64,000 nt of DNA, from the NCBI RefSeq assembly GCF_037042905.1, contig NC_087251.1, positions 17,796,001 to 17,860,000 on the forward strand, written 5' to 3'. The notes under the pieces are model-generated. The model was not told where the DNA came from, searched no databases, and saw only the letters and a list, made by a program, of their open reading frames with translations. How positions within the stretch are numbered: the first letter of the stretch is position 1; the number at the start of each line of letters is the position of its first letter. Shown here piece by piece: positions 9,823 through 54,119 of this stretch. The translations under genes were made by a program, and so were the position numbers. This DNA is from Lytechinus pictus (Eukaryota).

Positions 9823-10580
9823 CCCTAAATAGACTGGGCTATTTCGATGCCTAAGAAGACTGGGGGGGGGGGGCTGATTCAGCCCCCCCCCCTATGATCT
9901 CGGCCGTCGATCGCGCGATCGCGACGAAAATTGGCACACGTGTTACCCATGGCATTATCTACAAAACTATACCATCAAATTCTGCAAAAAATCTCATGTC
10001 TCATTAATTATGCTAATTTATGCGTAAAATCATAAGTTTGCTCTATTTAATAAAATAATGCCCCTGAAATGCTAATTTTTGTTTCACATACTCTAGATAG
10101 GCATCTGATCAAATTTATTAAAAAAAAATTTCAACATCACATTTATTTTCTTATGTATTCTATTGTTTTCTAAATTTCTTATGTATTTCTTTGTTTTTCG
10201 ACTTTTTTTTTTTAATTGTTTTTTCAATGGAAATTGTCGGGGACTTTATTTCGACCATAAAATAGATAAAATTAATTGAATTTAAGCAGTAAAAGGAAAA
10301 ATAATGATACATTTATGAATTTTGGTTAAAAACACTATTTGCATTGGATTTGTACACAAATTCATGTTTTTGAGTAATTTTGGGTCTGCATGCACTTACG
10401 AAATGTTGCGTGATTTCGGAACCGCGTACCCGGGGGTCACAATTTTGGTCTCAAAAGTTGCGAGAGACTTGAAGGTAAAAAGTCAGCGAGCGACGCGGTC
10501 AAAAAATTTCGCGTGGCGGATTTATCGCGAAAAATGTCGAGGGGGGGGGCTGAATCAGCCCCCCCCCAGTCTTTTTAGGG
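9823..10580. mobile_element. piggyBac-like MITE nested in the HINE-like element
   Basis: TTAA at 9819-9822 and 10581-10584. CCC...GGG termini with TIR CCCTAAATAGACTGGG / CCCAGTCTTTTTAGGG. G-run GCTGA(T/A)TCAGC C-run palindromes near both ends. Confidence 0.92.
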
Positions 10581-10619
10581 TTAAGACTGTCAACTTCACC
10601 CATGTCCACATTTCATTCA

Positions 10620-11690
10620 CTCTATCCATAAACTTTCAAAGTTATGATGGCACTTCAACAATTACCCCAACATGGCCTAAGTTTATTGACCTTAACTGAC
10701 CTTTGACTTGGTTTTGTGACCTGAAACTCACAGGGGATGTTCAGTGATGCTTGATTACTCTTATATCCCAAGTTTTATGAACTAGATCCATAAACTTTCA
10801 CAGTTAGGATGGTAATTCAACAAATACCCCCAACACGGCCAAAGTTCAATGACCTTTAATGACCTTTGACCATGGTCATGTGACCTGAAACTCGTACAGG
10901 ATGTTCAGTGATACTTGATTACTCTTATGTCCAAGTTTTATGAACTAGATCCATAAACTTTCAGAGCTAGGATGGTAATTTAACATATACCCCCAACACG
11001 GCCAAAGTTCATTGACCTTAAATGACCATTGACCATGGTCATGTGACCTGAAACTCGCACAGGATATTCAGTGGTACTTGATTAACCTAATGTCCAAGTT
11101 TCATGAACTAAATCCATAAATTTTCAAAGTTATGATGGTAATTCAACAAATACCCCCAACTTGGCCAAAGTTCATTGACCCTAAATGACCTTTGACCTTG
11201 GTCATGTGACCTGAAACTCAGGCAGGATGTTCACTAATACTTGATTAACCTTATGTCCAAGTTTCATGGACTAGATCCATAAATTTTCAAAGTTATGATA
11301 GTAATTCAACAAATACCCCCAACTTGACCAAAGTTCATTGACCCTAAATGACCTTTGACCTTGGTCACGTGACCTGAAACTCGAGCAGGATGTTCACTAA
11401 TACTTGATTAATCTTATGCCCAAGTTTCATGAACTAGGTCCATATACTTTTTAAGTTATGATGTCATTTCAAAAACTTAACCTTCGGTTAAGATTTTGAA
11501 AATAATTTTCCCAACATGGTCTAAGTTCATTGACCCTAAATGACCTTTGACCTTGGTCATGTGACCTGAAACTCAGGCAGGATGTTCAGTAATACTTGAT
11601 TAACCTTATGTCCAAGTTTCATGAACTAGGTCCATATACTTTCTAAGTTATGATGTCATTTCAAAAACTTAACCTTAGGTTAAGATTTGA
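10620..11690. repeat. Tandem array of a 163-bp unit (about 6 copies; last interval is a 192-bp variant)
   Basis: The anchor ACTA(G/A)(A/G)TCCAT recurs at 10781, 10944, 11107, 11270 and 11433 (163-bp spacing), then at 11625 (192 bp). Confidence 0.95.
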
Positions 11691-12400: not shown

Positions 12401-14463
12401 CCACTGTCTTCTCTAACTATCAGCTGGATTGAAATGTAAATCAAAAGAAGAGCAATGCAAAAGGGGGTTTTGTTTATTAGTCTATTATTTTTTTTTTGGC
12501 AGATGAAAAACTTTGAGTCCACAAAGAAAATGATTGAACAGCAACAGATTTGCTCAGAATGAGGTTATTATGCCATGTGGTAACATCTATACATTACATA
12601 CACTACATCTTTAATTGTTTTAATGAATAAATATATTGAATCACTGCATATACTGAATATTTCATATCCTCACCTAATGAAGGTGATGGATATGATAACC
12701 GAAGGTGTGTTCTTGTGATGCATCTGATAGTTGTTCACTATTGAATACATCATCTGTTATTCTCATTGCTTGTAATCCATCATTCCATAATTATATTCTC
12801 ATGATGAATATACTGTAGAGTAGGCAAAGCAGAGGCAAAGAGAAAGAGAGTGGGAGAGACAAGGGGAAGGGGGGGGGGGGGAGAAACTAGAGAGATGATG
12901 AAGAGAGGAAAGGAGAAAGGATTGAACTTGGCAAAGAAATAAAAGTCACATGTTTATCATACAAAATAAAGAGAGATAAAGACAAAGTGAGAAGTAGCAA
13001 CGCAAGAGAATAAGAGAATGGGAAGGGACATGGGGGAGATGTAGACAGAAAAAAGGTAATTGTACTTGGATGCACTGAAACAAATAGGTATAAAGGAGTT
13101 AGATTGAAACCTAATAATCACCTATGCATTTAAGATAGATGAGAGAGGTTATCTCGTTGAAAACGTTATAAAAACAAAAGCAACAATAGGAAAAGCAAAA
13201 TCTTACACAAAATGCACAAAACACTTAAAAATCATAACACTTCAGGTGTAAAGATACACCATACAGCATACCTGGTCAATTCCCAGAGAAATTTCTTTCG
13301 AACCAAACCAAGAATACTATGGGTCGATAACATGGCTCAAAATAATATTGGAAGCATCAATTATTGGGTGATACAGCGAGCCATGCAAACATGGGATGAT
13401 CATGTTATCTAGGAGACCTCTGGCAAGAAGAGATAATGCAAGGTCGGAGACAGTGAGATGGATAGATGATGCATTTAGCACCGATGCCATCCTGGATGGA
13501 GACAGAAGACAGGGAGGTGAGAAATAGGTGCCCCAGGTATGAGATGGGTGGGATGATGATGGATGTGATGGTTGCTAGGGAGAGGTGCAACAACATCACC
13601 AACCATATCTCCTCCAAGGGAAGGAGTAACACTAGATGGAGGAGAGATTTTTATGGTAGGTTATTCCAAATCAAGTTAACAAGCATACTTCTGAGGAGTT
13701 AAATGACTGTATCAATTTAGCTTGGAACCACCCACACCTTGAGTTAAACTTACAAGTTCTATGACATCAGCCAACACTCAACTCATTCCTGGTCAACGTT
13801 AGTAGAAAGAGGAAATTTGACACAGTGGAGTTGCTTCCTAAAATTGACACCATTTTTGCATCAAATTTGACTCTGCAGAAATAAGAGTGCAACAAATATT
13901 CATTAAAAAACTGCTGCACTCAACCCAGGTTGAGGAAAATGGTACTTAGTAGGGTTTAATCCTTGAATGCTTTTTTAGTTAAGCAACTCAGCTGCATCCA
14001 GGGTAATGATATACGCTCTGGAGGTAGCTCCATGCATGCACTGCACAATATCGTAAAAACCCCCATAGTATCCATGGCCTGAATGGGCCTAGAGTTTCCA
14101 TGCAATATAAATATGGAAAATATAAGTAATAGTAGAAGTATAATTGTAAAGATTGGGCATTGTAAAAATCAAGGAGATGGGAGTGACATGGACCTAACAG
14201 TATTTGAAGGTGAGAACAGATACAGAACTTTAGAGAGTGAAAAACAAGATTGCTGAGAAGGGAAACTGAGAAGGTAGCACCTTCTGCATGAGGCTCTGTG
14301 GTAACTTGAGAGATGTATGCAGCTCAGTTGTCACCAGGTCAATGCTCTCCTGTGATATCATCATGATGATAATGATGACTGATGCTGTCATATGATGAGG
14401 GTGTTGATGGTGAGACTGATGGAGGTCACTAATCACCTGGCACTGATATCATTGACATCAAAC

Positions 14464-14489
14464 CAGGGAAGTGTTATAACACTTCCCTG
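14464..14489. mobile_element. 26-bp perfect palindrome with 7-bp TSD; probable P-superfamily excision footprint
   Basis: ATCAAAC|CAGGGAAGTGTTA-TAACACTTCCCTG|ATCAAAC, with the direct repeats at 14457-14463 and 14490-14496. Confidence 0.75.
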
Positions 14490-16668
14490 ATCAAACTGAG
14501 ATGCAGACATCTTCCAGGACAGTGTATTCAGGAAGAATGATATCATTTACCATATGGTAATAAAAGGCAAGAAGGGAGTTGGTGAAGATAATATTGTGAA
14601 TGATTATGATGCTATTATTGATGTCTGAAAAGAGAACACAATCTACCTGGTAATGTTGTATTAGGTTGTAAAGTGCATGCATAATACATAATCCCCACAA
14701 ACAGAATATTAGTGCAGCAAACTTCTATTTGATAAAAAAGAGTCAGTCTCAACTTCATACACTTTTGTTTTTTATTTTTTACTTTTCAAAAGTAAAATAA
14801 AGGAGAAAGAATTCAAAGAGACTGACATCCGTACTCTGTTACCATAGATTGCAAACGTCAATATGTCTTTAAATCGGTCTGTGCATGATCAAGTTACAGC
14901 AAAGGCAAAAGCGGTGTCTGAATTATTGTTGCCGCAAACATCATGAAATCTCCAAATAGCACACCTTGCAAACAGACACCTAGAAAAAGAGAACATTCCT
15001 TGTAAACAGTGTCGGATAACCCCACAGAGCGAAAATAGTCCATATTTGAACGGCATATGGCAGAGATGATACAGCGAGCCTCTCTCCCACTGAGTAATCC
15101 ATGAAACATGAGAAACATTTCATCCCACAACGCTGTCAACACAAGCCGAAAAAGAGGAAGAAAAATGTGCACAAATAGACCAAACTTAATACCCGGTCCC
15201 TCCATTTTCGGGGCAAGGTTAACAAGTCTTAAGTATGTTTGCCATCTTTTGTGGGTGTTGACAGGAGGGTGGAGGGGGGCAGGTTGAGCAGAAGGAAGAA
15301 CATAGAAGTAACTCTATGCCTATGACTGCCTTGAACTTTCGTTGGAGGTGCAATAACCGCTAGAGCCCCGTGAAATGTGAGACCAATCTGGGTGTCGGAT
15401 CTATACCCCATGCCTAACTCAAGAATGGGAACAGAGTGATAAGGGTACATTAGATGGAAAGGCAGGCTGATATATGTCAGGAAACCTGTGACAAATAGGC
15501 AGGCGAAGAAAAGTTTAGATTTTAATAGGAGAGGTGGTTTCAGGATGTTGATTCCTTTTCAGCCCAAATTTGGGGGCCCATTTCAAGAGAACTTTCAATA
15601 TTATAATAACTTTGCCATTGTGTTACATGTCAAAGTCAAGATTAACATGGTATTTACAATGACAACAAAACTATTTTAGGCATAATAGTAAGGCTTAATA
15701 AAAACATGGACCCAGAATATAAATATTTGGTTTCCAAAAAAATAATGACAAAAATAATACCAAATTTTTATATAGCACAGATTACAGTTAAGTCTCTTAG
15801 CATAGGATTTGAAGGGACTTGTTCAACACTGCCACCCCTGTCCAGCCTTTGCTATGGAAACAGCAAAGTTGTGATCATCAAGATATTCACAAGGAAAGTG
15901 GACATATCATAAGAGGATCAGGGTTCAATGAACGTTTGGTTATTCTATATGACTTTGAGAAATATGATTTGTTAATCATTTCAAGTATTATCAGTGTACC
16001 AGTGGAAAGAAATCACTATGCATGAAAATAATATCAAATGACTTTTGAATTTGAACCTAGGACCAATTACACATCACACAATCCTTGTTGACTGATGATC
16101 ATACAGCCACAAGATCACTTCTATAAGAGCTATCATGTCTTCTCAATGTTACAAGCTACCACACCAGCTGTCAATATTCAGTTGAAGGCTTATCGCATGT
16201 ATGAAGAATATAAATGAATTGTATGTCTAACTTCCTATTCCATGTTCAAATGCAAGTATATCTGAAATTATTATTTTGTAGAAAACATGAACATAATAAT
16301 AAATGAACTAAACCCCTCAAAAAAAGTAACGCAACTCGAGTTTGAGGGGTTATAAAAATCTTATTGGCCCATCACCATATGTGAAAATGGTATCATATGC
16401 AAGCGGAATTATTCCTCTTTGCAATGATGTCATTTGTTATGTTGATTTTACCATGAGATGCGCAGTCATGATAAATGAGCAGTAATGTCAAGAACAAAAT
16501 GTTGCAAAATTCACTGTTTTCAGTAGTGAATTCATGATTGTACTGAACAGACTTGGATTGGTGTTTAACTCATTATTTCAAACATTTAAAGACAATGAAG
16601 ACACAGAAACAAATTGTTTATGTTTTATCACTTTCTTAAATTTTATTGAGAACTTCATACAACACGAG

Positions 16669-17662
16669 TCAGTAGCGGGTAGATGACCCAAACACATTAA
16701 CTACTGCATTACATCTCCTCCTCATACCGTTCACCAATCTCGTCACACGAGCCTGTGGGATGGCGTTCCACTCTTCAACCAGAATCAGGCGAAGCTCTGC
16801 TAACGTTGTATGATCAGTCACTCTCTGCCTGACAGACCTGCCAAGCTGATCCCACAAGTGTTCAATTGGGTTGAGGTCTGAACTGTTCGCTGGCCACTCC
16901 ATCCTCTCAACGCCCTCATTCTGCAAGTACTCGTTGTCATCTTGAAAGATAGCATTTGGGCCAAGATTACCGTGCAAATATGGAAGTACCACTGGTTGAA
17001 GCACTTCGTCTCTGTAGCGCTGAGCTGTCATGTTGCCATCAACAAGGATGAGTGGTGTCTTCCCCATCGTGGACATGCCTCCCCAAACCATTACACTGCC
17101 TCCTTCAAATGCTGTCACTCTGTCGACGCAACAATCAGCAAATCGCTCACCAGGACGTCGCCTGACCTTGATCCTGCCGTCAAGCTTCCTAAGACAGAAT
17201 AGTGACTCATCAGAAAAAAAGGACAGATCTCCACATCGCCTGGTTCCATCGTAAATGGTCACGGTACCAGCGCATACGGGTACGATGGTGAAGGACAGTC
17301 ATGGCAGGTCTTCTTGCAGCTTTACGGGCGCTCAAGTTGGTTGCATGGAGCCGGTTTCTGATCGTCTGATCAGACAGTCTTCTCCCGTATCTCCGTGCAA
17401 ACCTTTCTTGGAGATTTCTTGCCGATAGCCTTCGATTCCTTTATGCAGAGAGGGTGATATAGAGATCTTCCTCTGGTGTTGTCTGCTTTGGACGCCCACT
17501 TCTTGGCCTGTCTTTAACTTCCCCAGAATCAAGGAATTTGGCACTCAATCTTGAGATGGTGCTTTTGCTCACACCAAACCGGATGGCAACATCGTTTTGG
17601 GATACCCCTGCTTGGAGTTGGCCAATTGCTTGGGCCCTAAGGAGATTTGATAAGCGGGGCAT
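16669..17662 (-). pseudogene. Tc1 (DD34E-type) transposase, inactivated
   Basis: N-terminal paired-like HTH (MPRLS...VAIRFGVSKSTISRL...DRPRSGRPK) and catalytic motifs FSDES, GGSVMVWGG, FQDDN and WPANSSDLNPIEHLW. Lesions: in-frame TAA at 17441-17443, a +1 frameshift in the A7 run at 17214-17220, and about 10 codons missing after FQDDN (near 16932). Confidence 0.95.
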
Positions 17663-17730
17663 ATGGAAACCTTTTTCAAGCAACCACAAAAAAAAACACC
17701 ACAGGTTTACCTCACACAAACCAATAGTAA

Positions 17731-17893
17731 AACCTCAGTCACATTTGCTCTATGGCGGCCGTACGGCGAGTCGAAAACAGCCGTTTTAACATTTGTTGTA
17801 CCAGCTACATAATAAGTGATTTGAATAAAAATGAATAAAACGGCTGTTTTCGACTCGCCGTACGGCCGCCGTAGAGCAAATGTGACCGAGGTA
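17731..17893. mobile_element. PIF/Harbinger-like hairpin MITE inserted upstream of the Tc1 transposase
   Basis: About 57-bp TIRs, ACCTCAGTCACATTTGCTCTATGGCGGCCGTACGGCGAGTCGAAAACAGCCGTTTTA and its inverse with 2 mismatches. Flanked by TAA and TTA. Confidence 0.9.
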
Positions 17894-18873
17894 TTAGGCT
17901 TAACACACATGATTCATGTCTTTTGACTTCATCAATTACGACCTGGACAGCATTCAAACACATTTAAAGTAAGAACACAATCACATAAACATTTCTGAAA
18001 AAACAACAATATTCATCGGGGCAAAATGCAAACCCATGTGCAGATTCAAAAGAAATGCAGACTTTGGTTAAGAAACAATGCATTTTGCAACATTTCACTT
18101 CTGACTTTGCCTTATTGTCAGGTGTACTGAACATTCCTCGATTGCATAATCAGGACAATCATTTTAATCATTGTAAAGAGGAATAATGGAACTTTTCAAT
18201 GACACCACTCTCACCTTTTATAGATCAATGATAAAAAAGTTATCCTCCCTCAAACTTGAGTTGCGTTACTTTTTTTGAGGGGTTTATAATAACACTGTAC
18301 ACCTGCTAATTAGTTTATAGCTGCTATCAGGTGTTATTATCAGACACTAGATATCTAGAATAAATGCAAAGAAAATACTTCTCTGCATCTATATTGCATA
18401 ACACTTATCACACAGAAACTGTGTCAAGGACTTGATGGCTTTCCCTGAGCTCATTCTCTTTTCATCGCTGTTCTAATAAATTCGAATGTGGTGTATTTGT
18501 AACCAGAGAAGCTAACGGATGATGCTCACTCCGGTTTGAAAGTTTTATGAAGAAGCACCTGTGTCTCGGGTGACATCCTAACCTTACTTTGCAGAGGGGG
18601 CCATGGCATGGCATCGACCTACCCTCCAACAAGCTCCTAGGTCACCTTTGTTGGAACAAACTCTCATGGGAAGATAATCAGGTTAAATTGACACCTTCCC
18701 AACCATCTTTAAGGAGATAGTAAAATTGTAAAGAGGGTAACATGATGAGTCAATTGTTTGGGGAGTTAGAGACAGTCTGATGTGACATGCCATGTCATTC
18801 CATGTCATATGATATCACCTAAAAGTGTTCATTTACAGACACATTAATATTCAAAGGATTTGAATACAATCAG

Positions 18874-46014: not shown

Positions 46015-48258
46015 TTAAAAGAAGTGTTTTCCACTACACAGCCAATTATAAAATGTATTCAAAATGCAAGTCCAGATAGTATATTATGCATATGAGTGTG
46101 AAAATATTTTGATTATTATATCCAGATGTAAAGGAGGATATTTCTTTTATTTTCTTGATAATATGTGCTAACTGTGACAATCACACTATAACCTATCATT
46201 CTGAGCTTTTTACCTTGCTTTTCAAGATAATTTCCATTAAAGGAAGGTCTGGAAAAAGACTTCTTTCAAACAGGATAACAGAAGACTTCCTACATTGCGT
46301 GTTACCTATTACCCAGTGAGGGCGCCTCTCGTAGAGGTCAGTTGGTCTCATGACGAGACTAGTCTTGATCTTGATCAAGTCAATCACGAGAATGGCAAGT
46401 ACAAGGGCACTGTTAATGACCTGAGGCCCATACTAAGAAAGAGAGAGAGAGTAATCTATAATTTGATAGTATTTCCTTTGAAAATTACCTCCAATTCATC
46501 AAACAAATCAGACATATTATTCAACTTAGTTCTTTCTACTTTCAAGTTAGAAAAAAAAATACATACATGTAAGTATCCTAAGTACATGTAAGTATTCCTG
46601 TATCAAAATTTATTTACTGATGCATACAGGTCACTAGAAGAAACTGGATTTATCTACCTTCACAAAAACTGCATGAATATTATTTGAAATGGTTCATTAT
46701 TTTCATCATTATCCTATTTCAGTCAATTCAATCATATATATTGATAGGGATGGGGACATCAATTACACAAAGGTACAATGAACTGATTTCAGCAGGTGTT
46801 AGGGTAATGTTACACCCTTACGTCCTCGTTTCCTAATAACACCCCGTATCTTATAACCAATTAAAACAACTCTTTGACCTCTCCTTGGCAGTTTCTAGAA
46901 ACTGAGTTCTTTCCAGTTTCAATCTCATCTCTGAACCAGACCTGGGAATGACGTAAGGAGATACATTTAATATTTACAACTGATTGTAACTTATGAACAT
47001 GTTTACTGATAATCTTTGTTTATATAAGTTGACAAAATGTTTTAATGTGGAAGTTTTTGCAAGAAATTGAAATGAATGGATGAATCAACTTTTTGTATAC
47101 AGTTTTCCATAAATTTACAGTTACACTCAATTGTATCTATTATGTTGCACAGCACTGGGATGTGACATAAAGGTTTATAATTCATTGCAAATTTTTGTAC
47201 ATGGTTTGCTACAGACTTGCAATTAAGCTCAATTGTAAAACTTATTGTATCTTTTATGTTAGTGGGCACTGATATTTTGCATGACTCCCTTGAAAACAAA
47301 GTGACTTCTTAACTCAATATCCTCTTGCGTTGCCAGATTCTTCATTCTAAAATTTCATTGATTTTTCTCTTTGATTTCATGAAAACAAGGTGTTTCTCAT
47401 TCCTTGTTTTCTTCAGACACGACTGCTGAAATGGAGGCACTTCTATCACCAAGATCCGAGGAGCCATCAGCTTGGAATAGCTGCAGAGTGCCTCACGTGA
47501 CACCCAGTGCAGCCATCACTCCTTTTCGTTCCCTAGCCCTGGCGCGTTAACTGTATTGTGTTTCAGCTCCCACTAATTGATCCCCGAAACCGGAGACTTG
47601 TGCCTATGATAGGGGATATTTGGCTAATATCAGTCGGTGAGTCGGTGTGTTTGACATTTGATCGGCGGGATGTGCTGGTTGGATAGTGGAGAACCTTATC
47701 CTGGTAGTTATAATGTTACTATTTGATACCTTTACCTTCTCGTTTCCCCTCTCTCACCTTTCAGGGGGAAGCTACATGATTACTTTCGTGGGAGTAATAT
47801 AGGGGGAGAAAGAACTGTAAGGAAATTTGAAATAGGCCACCTGAGATCTCAATACCCAACCCCGCACAATATACTCTTTTCTGAAAGAGTTGATATCGAC
47901 GGAAATTGCATTAGCCATGCTCTAATGTGTGTATCCAGACAAAACAAAAACAGCACATGGAGAAAGTGACATTCTTATAACAATTACTAACTTTTGTACC
48001 TAGTCAATGATGATATAAGAGAGAAAGGTATGATAAAAACTGATGCACAATATTGCAGGAGAGCAGTTTTAATTTCCATGAAGTACATTGCCTCATTCAG
48101 AAAGGTATCAAAAGTTTTGTTTCTACCAATGAATTTTGAGAAAAAAATAGTGATATCATAGAGCTATTAAAATCAAGGGGAAATGGTAGAGATAGGGTAG
48201 GGATAGACGGGATGTGAGAGAAGAAATGGTATAGATAGAGTAGAGGATGTCTTCAAAC

Positions 48259-48474
48259 GCCTTGTTCAGACTATTGTCCAAGGGAAATTGAAATCTCTCC
48301 CAGACACATATTTCTTATGACCCACTGTTCACACCTTTCTCTGAGAAACAGATTCCATGATGGGAAATGAGATAGAATGCACCTCTCTGTGACTGTTCAG
48401 ACTACAAGACGAGATGAGAGTTCTTTAAGGCGGAGGTAGTTCCCTCCCCTTGGACAACAGTCTGAACACAGGGC
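48259..48474. mobile_element. MITE with about 26-bp TIRs
   Basis: GCCTTGTTCAGACTATTGTCCAAGGG pairs with CCCTTGGACAACAGTCTGAACACAGGGC. The motif TGTTCA(G/C)AC is repeated internally. Confidence 0.75.
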
Positions 48475-50659
48475 TAATCTATCAAAATGACAGAAGTCTC
48501 ATCCAAGTCTCTCCTCACAACCACTTTAATACTCTACTTTTCTCTCTCCCCATCTATCACACTACTTTAATTGTGGACCTCATTACACTTGTCGTTAAAG
48601 CGGTATGAGAATAGTTAGGTGAGCTATGGCTATCTCTTTCTGCCTATCAATCAGCGTGCTCCACTTAAACTCTTGGCAATGTCTGCACATTCTTTCATAT
48701 TTTAAAGCACAGATTTATTATGATAGAATTGTGAATCTTTGTCTCATGGTTTTTTATTTGCTTTCATTGAATTCATCATGATAATATATCCTATGTAATA
48801 TTGCTCCCAATAAATATCTATTCTAATATATTAAATTTTCTAACTAAAACATGTCACAAGATGGTTATATCAAATGCTTAATGATTCTTAAAATAAAGTT
48901 TTTAGGAAAGTTTAATATCTTTTTTTCTTCATATTTTGTCATCAATAAGTTGTACCAAAGACTGACTTTCTATCTGCAATTTTTATGCATCTACACGTAC
49001 AACTGGATATTCAGTAACAGATCAGTAATAATACAATTATTCTGAAATGATTATAAAATATATATGTCCAGCAAAGTCCTACAAATGTTCATGCTTCTTG
49101 TGAAACAGCGATTTCTTCACATTGCAAAACTCTGACTTAATTAAAATGCAATTTTTTTTGGGGTACATGTCCTCCTTCCTACTTAACCTCAATATTGGCA
49201 TTGTCATGGAAACACAGTTAAGAAGGAAAAGAGCATCCCATATGGGATGGCATCCCTACAGGGGGGATATCTTGCAGATAGCTTGTTAATCAGTTAATCT
49301 AATTGCATCATATCTCTACAAAACACACCCTCATCACTTTCCATCTTTATAGATATTTTGTAGTAAAACGGGAGAAAAAATGATTAAAGCGGGACATGTC
49401 TTCTCAGAAGGTGAACAGGCTCTTGTGCTGTAAAATTAGACTTGACATCTTTTATGAATAATGAAGTGCATTTTTTTATAATGATGTGTTGGCCATTTGA
49501 TCTATCAGAATCTGGAATGTTAATGTGTTTTCATCTATATGACCCATTGTAAAATCTTTGTGATGATGTAAATGGTTGATTTGGTTATTCTCCTTCTTAT
49601 GACGGTATATATTATAAGACTGCATAACCAAAATGTTACTTCGGGATAAGGACACAAGAACTGAGATTCATTCTGTCAAGGTACTGAAGCTATCTATGGT
49701 GGCTGTGGTATACTGCTTTTCACTGCAACAGGAGTATACACTTCTTTGAAGAGGTTGTTATTATACTTTCTTTTAAGAATTTTATTTTTTTCCCAGTATG
49801 GCTATTTTGGTTTATCTCTCCCTCACATACGAATAACAAGGTCGAATGTGCAGAGAAATTAACAGATAAGCGTGATTGTGATTGACCATCCATCATTCCC
49901 ATTTCAAACAAACATTTCTGCACGAGGATGTGTAGAGTATCTAAAAATCAAATTGATAAGGAATATCAAATATTCAACAACTAGAGAAACTTAAGAATAA
50001 ATCCAACCACATTGTTTTCTTGAAAATGTAAGGTTTATTACTGAATGCCCCTACCTCCCACATATTATACTGAGACATTAAAGTATCTCCTTTCCCCTGA
50101 GAAAAAAAATTGTAAAGAAAATAAATAAATACAACTTAGGCTTGATTTTTTAACAAGGGTACTGATAATGGTACCTCCCCATTTTAAGAAAGCCCAGGTA
50201 AATCTTCAAAGAATCTGTGAGTAAAATCTCCCCCTTTTTTCTCCCCGGGGGTCCAAGCTGGGATATTTCAGGCAAATCTGTGACAGAATCACATCTGCCC
50301 ATCCACTTTCACATTCTCCATTGCTAACTTTGAATTTAACATGAGTCAATGTGTGTTGACAAGATTACTTGTGACAGAAATGTGTTCTGAAACTTGGTTT
50401 GACCTTGCTCAACTTCAGATGTATGTATTGTTTAGTCCTGAAGAGGAAGGATAGAGAGAGGGTGGGGGGGGGGGTTCAAGTTCAAATTTTCTCTTATTGA
50501 GGGTCAGGGGTGAACTTCATGTTTGAAAAAGATTACCAAATTGGAGAGGGCACTGTATCAATAGGGCTTTTAAATAACTTATGACTTTGTTTATGGAATA
50601 AGAAGAGCAACACAACATCCATTGCCAATCGATTGCTATAAGAGTAGGGACACTCTGAC

Positions 50660-50683
50660 CATGGACCTACTAGTAGGTCCATG
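50660..50683. mobile_element. 24-bp perfect palindrome with 7-bp TSD; probable P-superfamily excision footprint
   Basis: CTCTGAC|CATGGACCTACT-AGTAGGTCCATG|CTCTGAC, with the direct repeats at 50653-50659 and 50684-50690. Confidence 0.75.
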
Positions 50684-52161
50684 CTCTGACTAATTGCTAA
50701 AATTCTAACAAGAGGTCTATTTCTTTGGATTGACAACTAGTTTGCAAGCACACTCTAATATGCTAAGGGTTAAGTGCACAATGCCCTTCGAGCATATTCA
50801 GACTATTTTTCAGTGAGTTTTGGCAGAGGATTTTTATCTGTAAGCTTGAGGAAGATTGCCATATATCCCCAAGAAAAATATAAATATGGGGGGAAATATT
50901 TTACCTTTTAATAATTGTTCAGGAATTCATACCAGGTCATTGCTTTGCACTCTTACTGGAATTTGTTCAAAGAGAAAGGGATCTATCTATTCCAATATAT
51001 TACAGATATTAAAGATGAGGGTGAGGAAACAGGATAAGAGCATCTCTCCTATTGAATGATATATATTCCAATCTAGTCATACAGGAAACCAGTCAGACAG
51101 AGCAGGCAGCAGGAATAAAAAGAAGCAAACAGTAATACAAGAAAAAAACATAGATACTGTATTTTCTTCTACTCTCTTCAACTATCTTTCCTCCTCTCTA
51201 ACATTTTTTTAAATTCCATCTGGTACCTGGGTTTTTCCCAAACAATGTTTTCTTCCTATAAAACTTGTCAGATAAAGAATCACAAGGGAACACCATGAGT
51301 ACATCAATCTTCTTGAGCTGTAAAGCATGCATAATTCAATGGTTTGTGCTGTTTGGGTCTTCTGGGAACAATGGTTTCTACCAGGTAAATAACAGTTGCT
51401 TTGGCAGTCCTTGAAGGTAGTATGAGACAGAGGTGAACAGGGGCACAGTGAAGTTGTCTTGAAGATCCTTGTTGATTCATCAAAGACAATAGTACCACTC
51501 TTAAAACCATGTTTGGTTCACTGGTGGGTGGGATGGTGCCTTGGATGATCAAGTACTATGTCAACTAGAGGGAAAATGACTTAATTGCATTACATTCTAA
51601 ATCTAAAAGATAGGGGACATTTGTTTGAACAAATCTGGCAAAAAGAAATAAACAATGTGGTCTCCTTACAGGTTCCAGTGTAGAGTTATGCATATCATAC
51701 AAACAGTAACATGAATAGCTCCCCCGAACCTATTCTTTATGGTAAGTGTTAGTCGAAAGGCCTAATCGAAACCAATACATCTATGATATTTTTCTTTCAT
51801 TTTCAGCTAAAGAACATGAAGGGCATAATTGCATCTTTCTCAAAGGCATTATCATCCTTTTGCTTCCAAGCATAAACATCAAAAGCACACCTTGGCTTTG
51901 GGAAGTTGGCTGGGGGCAAGAGATAATGTGTGGAAGTTAACACCCATCCATCTCATTTACCCATATACCTCTCCTACATTCCCAGGACAGACTATCATCA
52001 TCTCCATCTATCCATCTCTCATCACATACCTAGAGGGCAGGCTTGAGCAAGGTAAACCTACCTTATCACCACCAAGTTACTTTCTCAAAGCAGACAGAAG
52101 GTAGACTCATGGCCCAAAGAAGGAGAAAAGAGACTTCAAAAAAATTCTATGACAAATTTAA

Positions 52162-52695
52162 AGGGGAGATATACCCTGATGCAAAATCTATTTCAATAAC
52201 AACATTAAAAAGTGAGAGAAATACATTAACCTGTTGGCTACAGGAACTGGGTCCGCCACATCCAAATCTATAAGAATCAAAGAATACAACAGTCAACAGG
52301 TTAATCATGGTTTTTAACAACAAAAAACATGCACAGATTTTTAAGTTTTGATTTTGTGATGTCATTTGTAAATGCCTTACGCACAAGATCAAATTCCATG
52401 AATTGCTATCTTGTATATTTCATGTTAAACACTTATTTGTGGAAGCATACTGATAATGTGTCAGGTTTGAAAATTAATGGTAAAGTCATTTAAAGATCAC
52501 CTATAAAAGTGACATTTTACATTTTTTGTTAATGGAAGCTGGGATAAAAGCAAGCAAGGCTTAGGGATTATCACAAAAATAACGTTTTGAAAATCATTAT
52601 ACAGCTATCTTTGGACCATACATTTAATAAAACATTTCACTTCAATTTGTTTTTTCCATAAGGGGATATAAATAACACCAAGGAAAGCTTCACCT
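52162..52695. mobile_element. Old Kolobok-like MITE
   Basis: TTAA|AGGGGAGATATACCCTGA ... CTTCACCT|TTAA. The left end and the internal TTTTGTGATGTCAT resemble the 8751 family. Confidence 0.5.
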
Positions 52696-54119
52696 TTAAG
52701 AGTATTAACAGCCAAATACCCAAGAAAGGACATTGAAGCATCTTCTTGCTTTACCAGAACATGTGATGACAGACCGAATTAAACATAGAATTAAAAACTA
52801 GGAGCACTGTCAGGAACTCCTCATTCGATGAACCTTCGGAAATTTATCCAGTGATGTAATATTTGGGTAAAAGTCATGAAGAAAAAGTTTGAAACTCTGC
52901 CAAGAGAATGATACAAATGGAGCAGACAATAGCCATGAGAGTTGCAAGAAAGGATGAAGTCATTACAGCAGCAAAAGCCTGCAATGGTTTCATGAGTAAG
53001 AGCAGGTATTTTGGAAATGAATCATTCCAAGTTTCAAATTCAACCTTGATTTATAAGCAGTGAATCAATTACCTAGGAAGGGTTGATTACATGGATATGA
53101 AGTACAAATCTAGATTTGACACGATGAGCTAAATATGATGAAAAATCTAGATTTCCTGAAAGAAAAGATATGACCAAAACATACGATGAAACATTAAAAA
53201 TATTGTAAAAACAAAAAACAAAATTATGCTTACATCTGCAACAAAGCAATCTAGAATTTAGTTATGCAAACTGTGGAAACAATGATTTTCTCCCCAACTC
53301 AATCCTAGCAAAGATTAACTTGAACCAGTTTACAAGTCAGTGGTGCATAGGAAATCATCTGAGGGTGTGGGGCAATGGGCAGACAACTTGGGTGCCTATT
53401 TAAGGGGTGTTAAAAAGACAATACTTTAAAAGTTTAAAGTTTAGTCTGATGAACAACTATAGAAGTCACTTGCATGTGAAGTTCAGAGGGATGCAACTTC
53501 AACACTTTGGCCCCTTGTCAGTTGTTGGAATGGGGCGCGATTTTGGCACTCGCCCTGAGAGTAGTTTTTCTTGGATACCCTACTGTTATGAGAAGATAAA
53601 GCAGGTAATATATTTTGAGCAAGGTGTGGCTTAAGCAAGCGAAACTATATATTGCCGAATCTTGATCTCACAGCTTATTCTGCTTTCCAAAGTAGAGCAA
53701 AGCCATAAGACACCCCCAGAACAGGAGAGTGAAAGTTCTCATGTTGCTGAAATTACTCATCCCACCACACCTGAGTGTGGTGAACTTCCCATACCTGTGA
53801 ACTCCTAAACCCCTCATTGACATTAATGCAGGAGCTTTGCCTTTTATGAGCTCTGGGTTAGTCACACAATATCCTACGAAGAGCAAATACAATTGTTTCT
53901 AATAAGATAAGTCAATCAACATCATGGATATCGTGATCCCTCCCCCACACTACTGGATTCTTCCCTGGTTTATCTGACACCCGCTTCAGTATCATATAAC
54001 ATGATAATCTAATTGGGATAATATTTTAAAGAAAAAAGAAAGAAAGAAGGTGATGCCCATTTGGGACGATAAGCCGGCGAAAAATGAATACCCTTTTCTA
54101 TGAATATGATTATTGTTGA

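Follow-up and report, generated by a model that had tools for sequence, protein, structure and literature searches.

The palindrome at 50653–50690 and its setting

In the window, the 64-kb stretch of DNA analysed here, positions 50653–50690 read exactly CTCTGAC, CATGGACCTACTAGTAGGTCCATG, CTCTGAC, and the original prediction of a 24-bp palindrome between two copies of this 7-mer is correct letter for letter. The core (50660–50683) is a perfect palindrome of two 12-bp arms with zero loop, and the longest direct repeat that flanks it is 7 bp. We take the left copy of the 7-mer (50653–50659) and the right copy (50684–50690) as a putative target site duplication (TSD); the same 7-mer stands on both sides of the core at other loci. 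The left arm lies at 50660–50671 on the forward strand. These 12-bp arms, also predicted originally, are geometrically exact but are probably parts of longer stubs of at least 14 nt that overlap at CTAG. The left stub, CATGGACCTACTAG (50660–50673, forward strand), would represent the first 14 nt of a transposon end, a length that is suggested by the +CTAG, −3 and −6 centre variants described below. Its reverse complement forms the right stub (50670–50683, reverse strand), and the self-complementary CTAG at 50670–50673 is the putative annealing point; by computation, two 14-nt stubs joined through this 4-nt microhomology give the 24-mer.

Only two loop-free palindromes with arms of at least 10 bp occur in the 64 kb. 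The second is a 26-bp palindrome at 14464–14489 that lies between two copies of ATCAAAC (14457–14496) and belongs to another family; both palindromes have CA...TG ends and are bordered by a direct repeat of exactly 7 bp. When 64-kb windows were simulated 200 times with an order-4 Markov model, arms of at least 12 bp arose 0.005 times per window, in agreement with the earlier estimate of about 0.004, and a palindrome (arm at least 10 bp) with a 7-bp repeat arose in 0 of the 200 simulated windows. In the real window, 7-mers spaced 24 bp apart are identical at 0.0003 of positions. A looser scan (16–60 bp, at most one mismatch) returned three matches with a 7-bp repeat, namely those at 50660 and 14464 and a 51-bp AT-rich match that lacks CA ends. 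The predicted hairpin folding (z −3.3) adds nothing beyond the palindrome itself. A contig from sequencing run X8, possibly the window's own source, covers the analysed stretch with zero base changes and a single 1-bp gap, and this agreement makes an assembly error unlikely.

The window has a GC content of 33–42% and contains many small inverted-repeat elements. Among the longest 150 of 175 open reading frames of at least 62 aa, the only Pfam matches were three Tc1-type transposase pieces at 16672–17734, and neither a THAP domain nor an RNase H domain interrupted by a GTP-binding insertion was found. The locus at 50653–50690 is non-coding DNA with no sign of function. Elsewhere in the window, a Tc1-type element with 56-bp inverted ends (16309–18286) carries its transposase in three frames and a 169-bp inverted-repeat element inserted at 17728–17896. 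G-run/C-run palindromes at 9864 and 10541 adjoin a 163/192-bp tandem array at 10602–11688.

The ends at 14464 and 50660 agree at 8 of 13 terminal positions (CAnGGAnnTnnTA), and on this sequence resemblance the two families may be distant kin. The original assignment to different TIR families stands in that the two are distinct, but they are not wholly unlike. The 14464 family gave four matches in viral contigs, none with a duplication. The best match to the 50660 end elsewhere in the window lies at 14187 and has two mismatches in 14; it was treated as a chance match and not as a parent end. Matches with two mismatches number 13 in the window (4.3 expected), a count that includes the two arms and two matches in the tandem array at 11331–11688. 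TACATGTA is present in five copies in the whole window, with about two expected. The left flank contains the hexamer AGTAGG (50643–50648, forward strand), whose letters are the same as those of 50672–50677 in the right arm; its frequency in the window is 0.00018 per site, and the match between flank and arm is probably a coincidence.

Dispersed copies and the orthologous site

Eight public sequencing runs share words with 47500–53500, X8 from organism B at 0.74 and seven runs from organism A at 0.12–0.18. Contigs of four of the eight were aligned to 50200–51150 (X1, X2 and X3 from organism A, X8 from organism B; X4–X7 were left out). Organism A is about 94% like the window. All four runs contain contigs that align only over about 50650–50696 and then continue into unrelated and mutually different flanks. 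The sequence is not unique: the same core is observed directly at other loci in every run aligned. Among the matches listed, X8 contributes at least six such records from other loci, and 24 X1 contigs, 23 X2 contigs and 14 X3 contigs have loose ends on the left side, where contigs are not equivalent to loci and the alleles of one locus may be counted twice. These copy counts are lower bounds: the bare 24-mer is probably too short to align, so that the copies seen are likely those with a CTCTGAC-like duplication. In record 5 (X1) and records 27 and 29 (X8), the core is shorter but is flanked left and right by an unaltered CTCTGAC, and the duplications are therefore intact at these other loci. 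The exact recurrence of this 7-mer suggests a target preference.

The centres of the dispersed copies vary, and core lengths range across loci from 18 to 28 bp with at least seven lengths represented. A centre with an additional CTAG (28 bp) was found in X1, X2 and X3, a centre shortened by four (20 bp), which is a frequent form, in X8 and X1, and a centre shortened by three (21 bp) in X8 and X3. Record arithmetic adds centres of −6 (X1 record 2) and −5 (X8 record 27), as well as −1 and +1. Computation shows that two CATGGACCTACTAG stubs annealed at shared words of at least 2 nt yield exactly 18, 21 and 24 bp, and that a blunt join yields 28 bp. The 20-bp form falls outside the predictions from this stub and may derive from a related end, as its sequence is identical to that of a 20-bp member of the sister family described below. 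Replication slippage within the 24-mer could be an alternative source of the −3 and +4 forms.

The orthologous site was also recovered from organism A. Record 1 of X1 covers 540 positions and comprises 507 letters together with 35 gap positions; subtraction of a listed 1-bp insertion and 5-bp deletion leaves 29 deleted positions, and a depth dip of five positions in the bin 50616–50647 places the start of this gap at 50643. The alignments of record 15 of X2 and record 23 of X3 begin at 50672, contain no gap and have 5 mismatches in 88 positions. Organism A thus has a single CTCTGAC and lacks 50643–50671. The orthologue is ambiguous because AGTAGG at 50643–50648 is repeated at 50672–50677. In one of two possible readings, organism A has an empty site with two extra flank bases, and the aligner slid onto the hexamer; in the other, a deletion occurred between two AGTAGG hexamers and the right arm was kept, in which case the scar predates the split. 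The 5 mismatches in 88 match the general divergence (32 in about 506) and separate neither reading. A clean empty site explains the gap no better than does a 29-bp deletion between the hexamers. The predicted 31-bp presence/absence difference was not seen in clean form; the organism A site is 29 bp shorter, which may or may not derive from such a difference. No long-element allele was seen at the orthologous site in the aligned contigs. In organism A, AGTAGG has the same position relative to CTCTGAC as within the arm, which could reflect coincidence, a deletion boundary or targeting of an end-like sequence. The organism A contigs of all three runs break or restart near 50740–50807, which suggests that sequence has been inserted or rearranged at this place compared with the window.

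A sister family in metagenome contigs

Exact 12-bp arms of the window family at a spacing of 0–30 bp returned no match in viral or metagenome contigs. With 10-bp arms, there were none in viral contigs and seven in prokaryote genomes, none of the seven with a duplication. A search of metagenome contigs with the first 10 nt of the window end and their reverse complement, 0–30 bp apart, gave at least 120 loci. Among those listed, 99 rows constitute one family that begins CATGGACCTATAAATAGAACGC, and 21 rows lie outside it. Collapsing the 99 rows by their flanks left 66 sites among the matches listed; a few duplicates may remain in this number, and one site (L011) is probably a chance inclusion. 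This sister family is an analogue from another organism that shares the first 10 terminal nucleotides and is not the window's own family. Its end is absent from the prokaryote genomes and viral contigs scanned. Three domain matches in the flanks (70 frames from 52 loci), to pieces of a ligand-gated ion channel, of a formin and of an endonuclease/phosphatase domain, indicate that the host DNA is animal-like; a transposase domain was not found in the same frames.

Of the 64 listed sites with both flanks, 53 have an 8-bp duplication (47 exact, 6 with one mismatch), two have a 7-bp repeat, which is exact at one site and contains a mismatch at the other, and nine have none. No exact 7- or 8-bp repeat accompanies the 21 listed metagenome rows outside the family or the seven prokaryote matches. 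The duplications of the listed sites favour GT...AC, a preference shared with the P-group target motif, with G and T at positions 1 and 2 in 51 of 94 half-sites each. No enrichment was found at the flanking A positions of that motif (P 0.07 and 0.2).

The sister family forms a directly observed series of two-stub structures with a length cap. Among the listed sites, 26 are 42 bp long and 10 are 40 bp, and 42 bp corresponds to 22+22 with a 2-nt overlap. Only two listed sites are longer, one a 43-mer form and the other a 50-mer that contains an internal repeat, in a search pattern that allowed 50. Lengths capped near 42 bp fit two 22-nt stubs joined end to end. In tests that were framed post hoc, a whole 22-nt arm was joined directly to a shortened arm at 8 of the 31 shorter, non-modal listed sites, compared with 2.0 if single deletions struck the 42-mer at random (P 0.0004), and in 5 of 24 distinct forms when each form was counted once (1.7 expected, P 0.02). 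The 66 listed sites contain 30 distinct forms; the identical 42-mer is present at 23, the identical 40-mer at 7, and asymmetric forms recur at two to five.

Several further structures were noted in the same set. At L049:1643–1664, a lone 22-nt sister end runs into unrelated sequence, and a 42-mer with no duplication lies about 330 bp away; the lone end could be a parent end or a one-sided scar. It was not counted as a parent, since it shares no common continuation with the other 119 listed loci. A 21-bp palindrome at L071:728–748, in DNA of 38% GC, starts with the 10 nt used in the search and is flanked by a 7-bp repeat that has one mismatch; it is possibly a relative of the 7-bp type in a third organism. 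A 37-bp near-palindrome with an exact 8-bp duplication (L038:2218–2254) belongs to another CATG-ended family in the same animal-like DNA. At L061 and L080, the targets of two sister scars overlap in the same sequence 6 bp apart, which suggests a hot spot in a repeat.

Probable excision by a P-like transposase and comparison with known systems

On our analysis, the structure at 50653–50690 is quite probably the end-joining footprint of a P-superfamily element of the type that duplicates 7 bp (1360/Galileo), with stubs of at least 14 nt. We infer the transposase, its superfamily, its cut position and the repair pathway as follows. A cut-and-paste transposon of this type would have inserted at CTCTGAC and duplicated the 7-mer. 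On excision, its transposase would have cut one strand at the tip of the element and the other well inside the terminal repeat, which would leave each flank with a single-stranded 3′ stub of at least 14 nt beginning CATGGACCTACTAG. The identical stubs would then have annealed at the self-complementary CTAG and been trimmed, filled and ligated by end joining, to give duplication, 24-bp palindrome and duplication. Annealing at CTAG is one possible route, and a blunt join of 12+12 would give identical letters. The resulting scar is probably inert. The mechanism draws its strongest support from the sister family, an 8-bp-duplication family of another organism that was tested post hoc. Scans of the window and of the sequence collections found no long element or transposase for either family, and a parent element of the window family was not found in the 64-kb window or in the viral, metagenome and prokaryote scans.

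The structure works like a P footprint, and its putative placement in the P superfamily is based on resemblance. The internal transposase-binding sites and subterminal inverted repeats of the superfamily are too large for a 24-mer and would lie, like the defining transposase, in the parent element. The window end starts CATGG and fits CANRG, the terminal motif of the P superfamily. It likewise fits the CATG of Drosophila P as given in PMC5466332, which is a short and weak feature. The exact 7-bp TSD lies within the 7–8 bp of the superfamily, in which canonical P duplicates 8 bp and 1360 and Galileo duplicate 7 bp (PMC3698922, PMC3276498, PMC4168063). 1360/Galileo is therefore a closer type than the canonical P elements to which the termini were originally likened, because the duplication here is 7 bp and that of P is 8 bp. 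The window site matches the P-group target motif ANAGT/ACTNT at 6 of 8 positions, as do 0.7% of window positions, and the 14464 site at 4 of 8. The insert consists of two element ends only, joined by microhomology or bluntly as in a P-type footprint, and its junctions are variable, from 18 to 28 bp in the window family (where alignment limits the observable lengths) and up to 22 nt per arm at the listed sites of the sister family. The broader prediction of a footprint from a second P-like family is partly supported, by the dispersal, the duplicated flanks, the distinctness from 14464 and an anatomy like that of P junctions (PMC5466332, Table 1), but its parent and transposase were not found in these scans.

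We consider it unlikely that the 24-mer is itself a mobile micro-element, that is, fused terminal repeats that moved as a unit with a fresh 7-bp duplication each time and acquired centre variants by later slippage. The presence of a few recurring forms at many loci would fit such an element, as would the repeated 42-mer, 40-mer and asymmetric forms of the sister family and the lack of a parent in the window and collection scans, but recurring forms are equally predicted by microhomology joining. The 30 forms at 66 listed sites, the sharp cap and the excess of whole-stub joins also argue against it. Furthermore, the 10-bp sites to which P transposase binds lie internal to the 31-bp repeats, and non-autonomous P elements in nature measure 0.5–2.8 kb (PMC7776569). 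Structures of 18–42 bp would thus be too short to include the cis sites known for P, should their enzyme be P-like. Palindromes of this size, were they re-inserted by a P-like transposase, would be about the smallest mobile elements in animals.

Less probable still is a remnant of a longer inverted-repeat element that lost its interior without a transposase cut, through hairpin/cruciform deletion or recombination between the repeats. Long inverted repeats are prone to deletion, and such a loss would likewise leave a duplication and fused ends; the single 22-nt end at L049:1643 that runs into other sequence would be compatible with it. Broad remnant lengths and unpaired interior bases would be expected, however, whereas the listed sister sites stop at 22 nt per arm and show direct joins.

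We assign only a very small probability to a footprint of another superfamily (hairpins of hAT, Transib or Mutator) or to locally templated repair, such as a polymerase-theta switch seeded by the flank AGTAGG. The identity and rarity of the flank hexamer at 50643–50648 and the start of the right arm would favour local templating, but the same palindrome occurs at many loci with unrelated flanks, and so it was not copied from this flank. Hairpin footprints of hAT, Transib and Mutator consist of flank DNA; here, the same core lies between unrelated flanks. The 7-bp duplication is that of 1360/Galileo, compared with 8 bp for hobo and 5 bp for Transib. Chance or an assembly artefact has a negligible probability and was rejected: the window was chosen for its oddities and X8 may be its own source, but no simulation reproduced the structure, and copies of the family were found in the three runs from organism A.

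The end-joining footprint remains our preferred reading. Its mechanism is already known from Drosophila, and the window scar would be a new natural case. P transposase makes a staggered cut, in which one strand is cleaved at the 3′ end of the element and the opposite strand 17 bp into the terminal repeat, and end joining is one way in which the donor break can be repaired (PMC7776569). The 3′ overhangs that remain after excision are 17 nt long (PMC5466332, PMC8951532), and repaired donors consist of duplication, stub, microhomology or blunt join, stub and duplication, in symmetric and asymmetric versions (PMC5466332, Table 1). What is new here is the presence of the window family in a second organism and the length series of the sister family, which points to a 22-nt stagger. 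In the literature covered, outside which lay most subscription papers and Repbase, we found no report of P-type scars that occur naturally and genome-wide in echinoderms or in any other animals than insects. If these structures are scars, past excisions, of which little trace usually remains, can be counted from them, and the depth at which transposases never yet purified make their cuts can be read from the length series. They would also represent natural end-joining products from marine invertebrate germlines and could serve as short, nearly homoplasy-free markers.

Among known P-related elements, the MITE BuT5 is similarly non-coding, dispersed and duplication-flanked with P-related ends, but it is about 1 kb long and keeps a putative THAP-binding site (PMC3698922), whereas the window structure has no interior at all. 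MITEs have a uniform size and sequence and an internal spacer; here, there is no spacer, and at least seven lengths occur in the window family and 30 forms at the 66 listed sister sites. The zebrafish THAP9-type elements are likewise P-like outside insects, with short 13-bp terminal repeats, but they have an 8-bp duplication and internally deleted copies with subterminal repeats, and their description in PMC7776569 makes no mention of fused-end scars in the parts consulted. The 1360 and Galileo elements share the 7-bp duplication and a near-palindromic target with T at position 2 and an AC end (GTANTAC in Galileo; PMC3698922, PMC4168063, PMC3276498). The likeness is one of duplication and target, and the long terminal repeats, interior and transposase of these elements are not seen here.

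The closest anatomical match is to the repair junctions of Drosophila P (PMC5466332, PMC7776569, PMC8951532), which share the order of duplication, CATG stub, join, stub and duplication, the symmetric and asymmetric versions, and the lack of products beyond two stubs unless bases were inserted (PMC5466332). They differ in an 8-bp duplication as opposed to 7 bp here, in end sequences that are alike over the first 4 nt only, and in a 17-nt stub, where the window family has at least 14 nt and the sister family 22 nt. They are also products of laboratory assays, whereas those described here are natural, dispersed genomic copies. If the sister structures are scars, their 22 nt exceed the 17 nt of P, itself regarded as atypically long. 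On balance, we favour the view that related P-like families cut at different depths (about 14–16 nt here, where the duplication is 7 bp, 22 nt in the sister family, where it is 8 bp, and 17 nt in Drosophila), and that the stagger of the cut is an evolving property which can be read from sequence.
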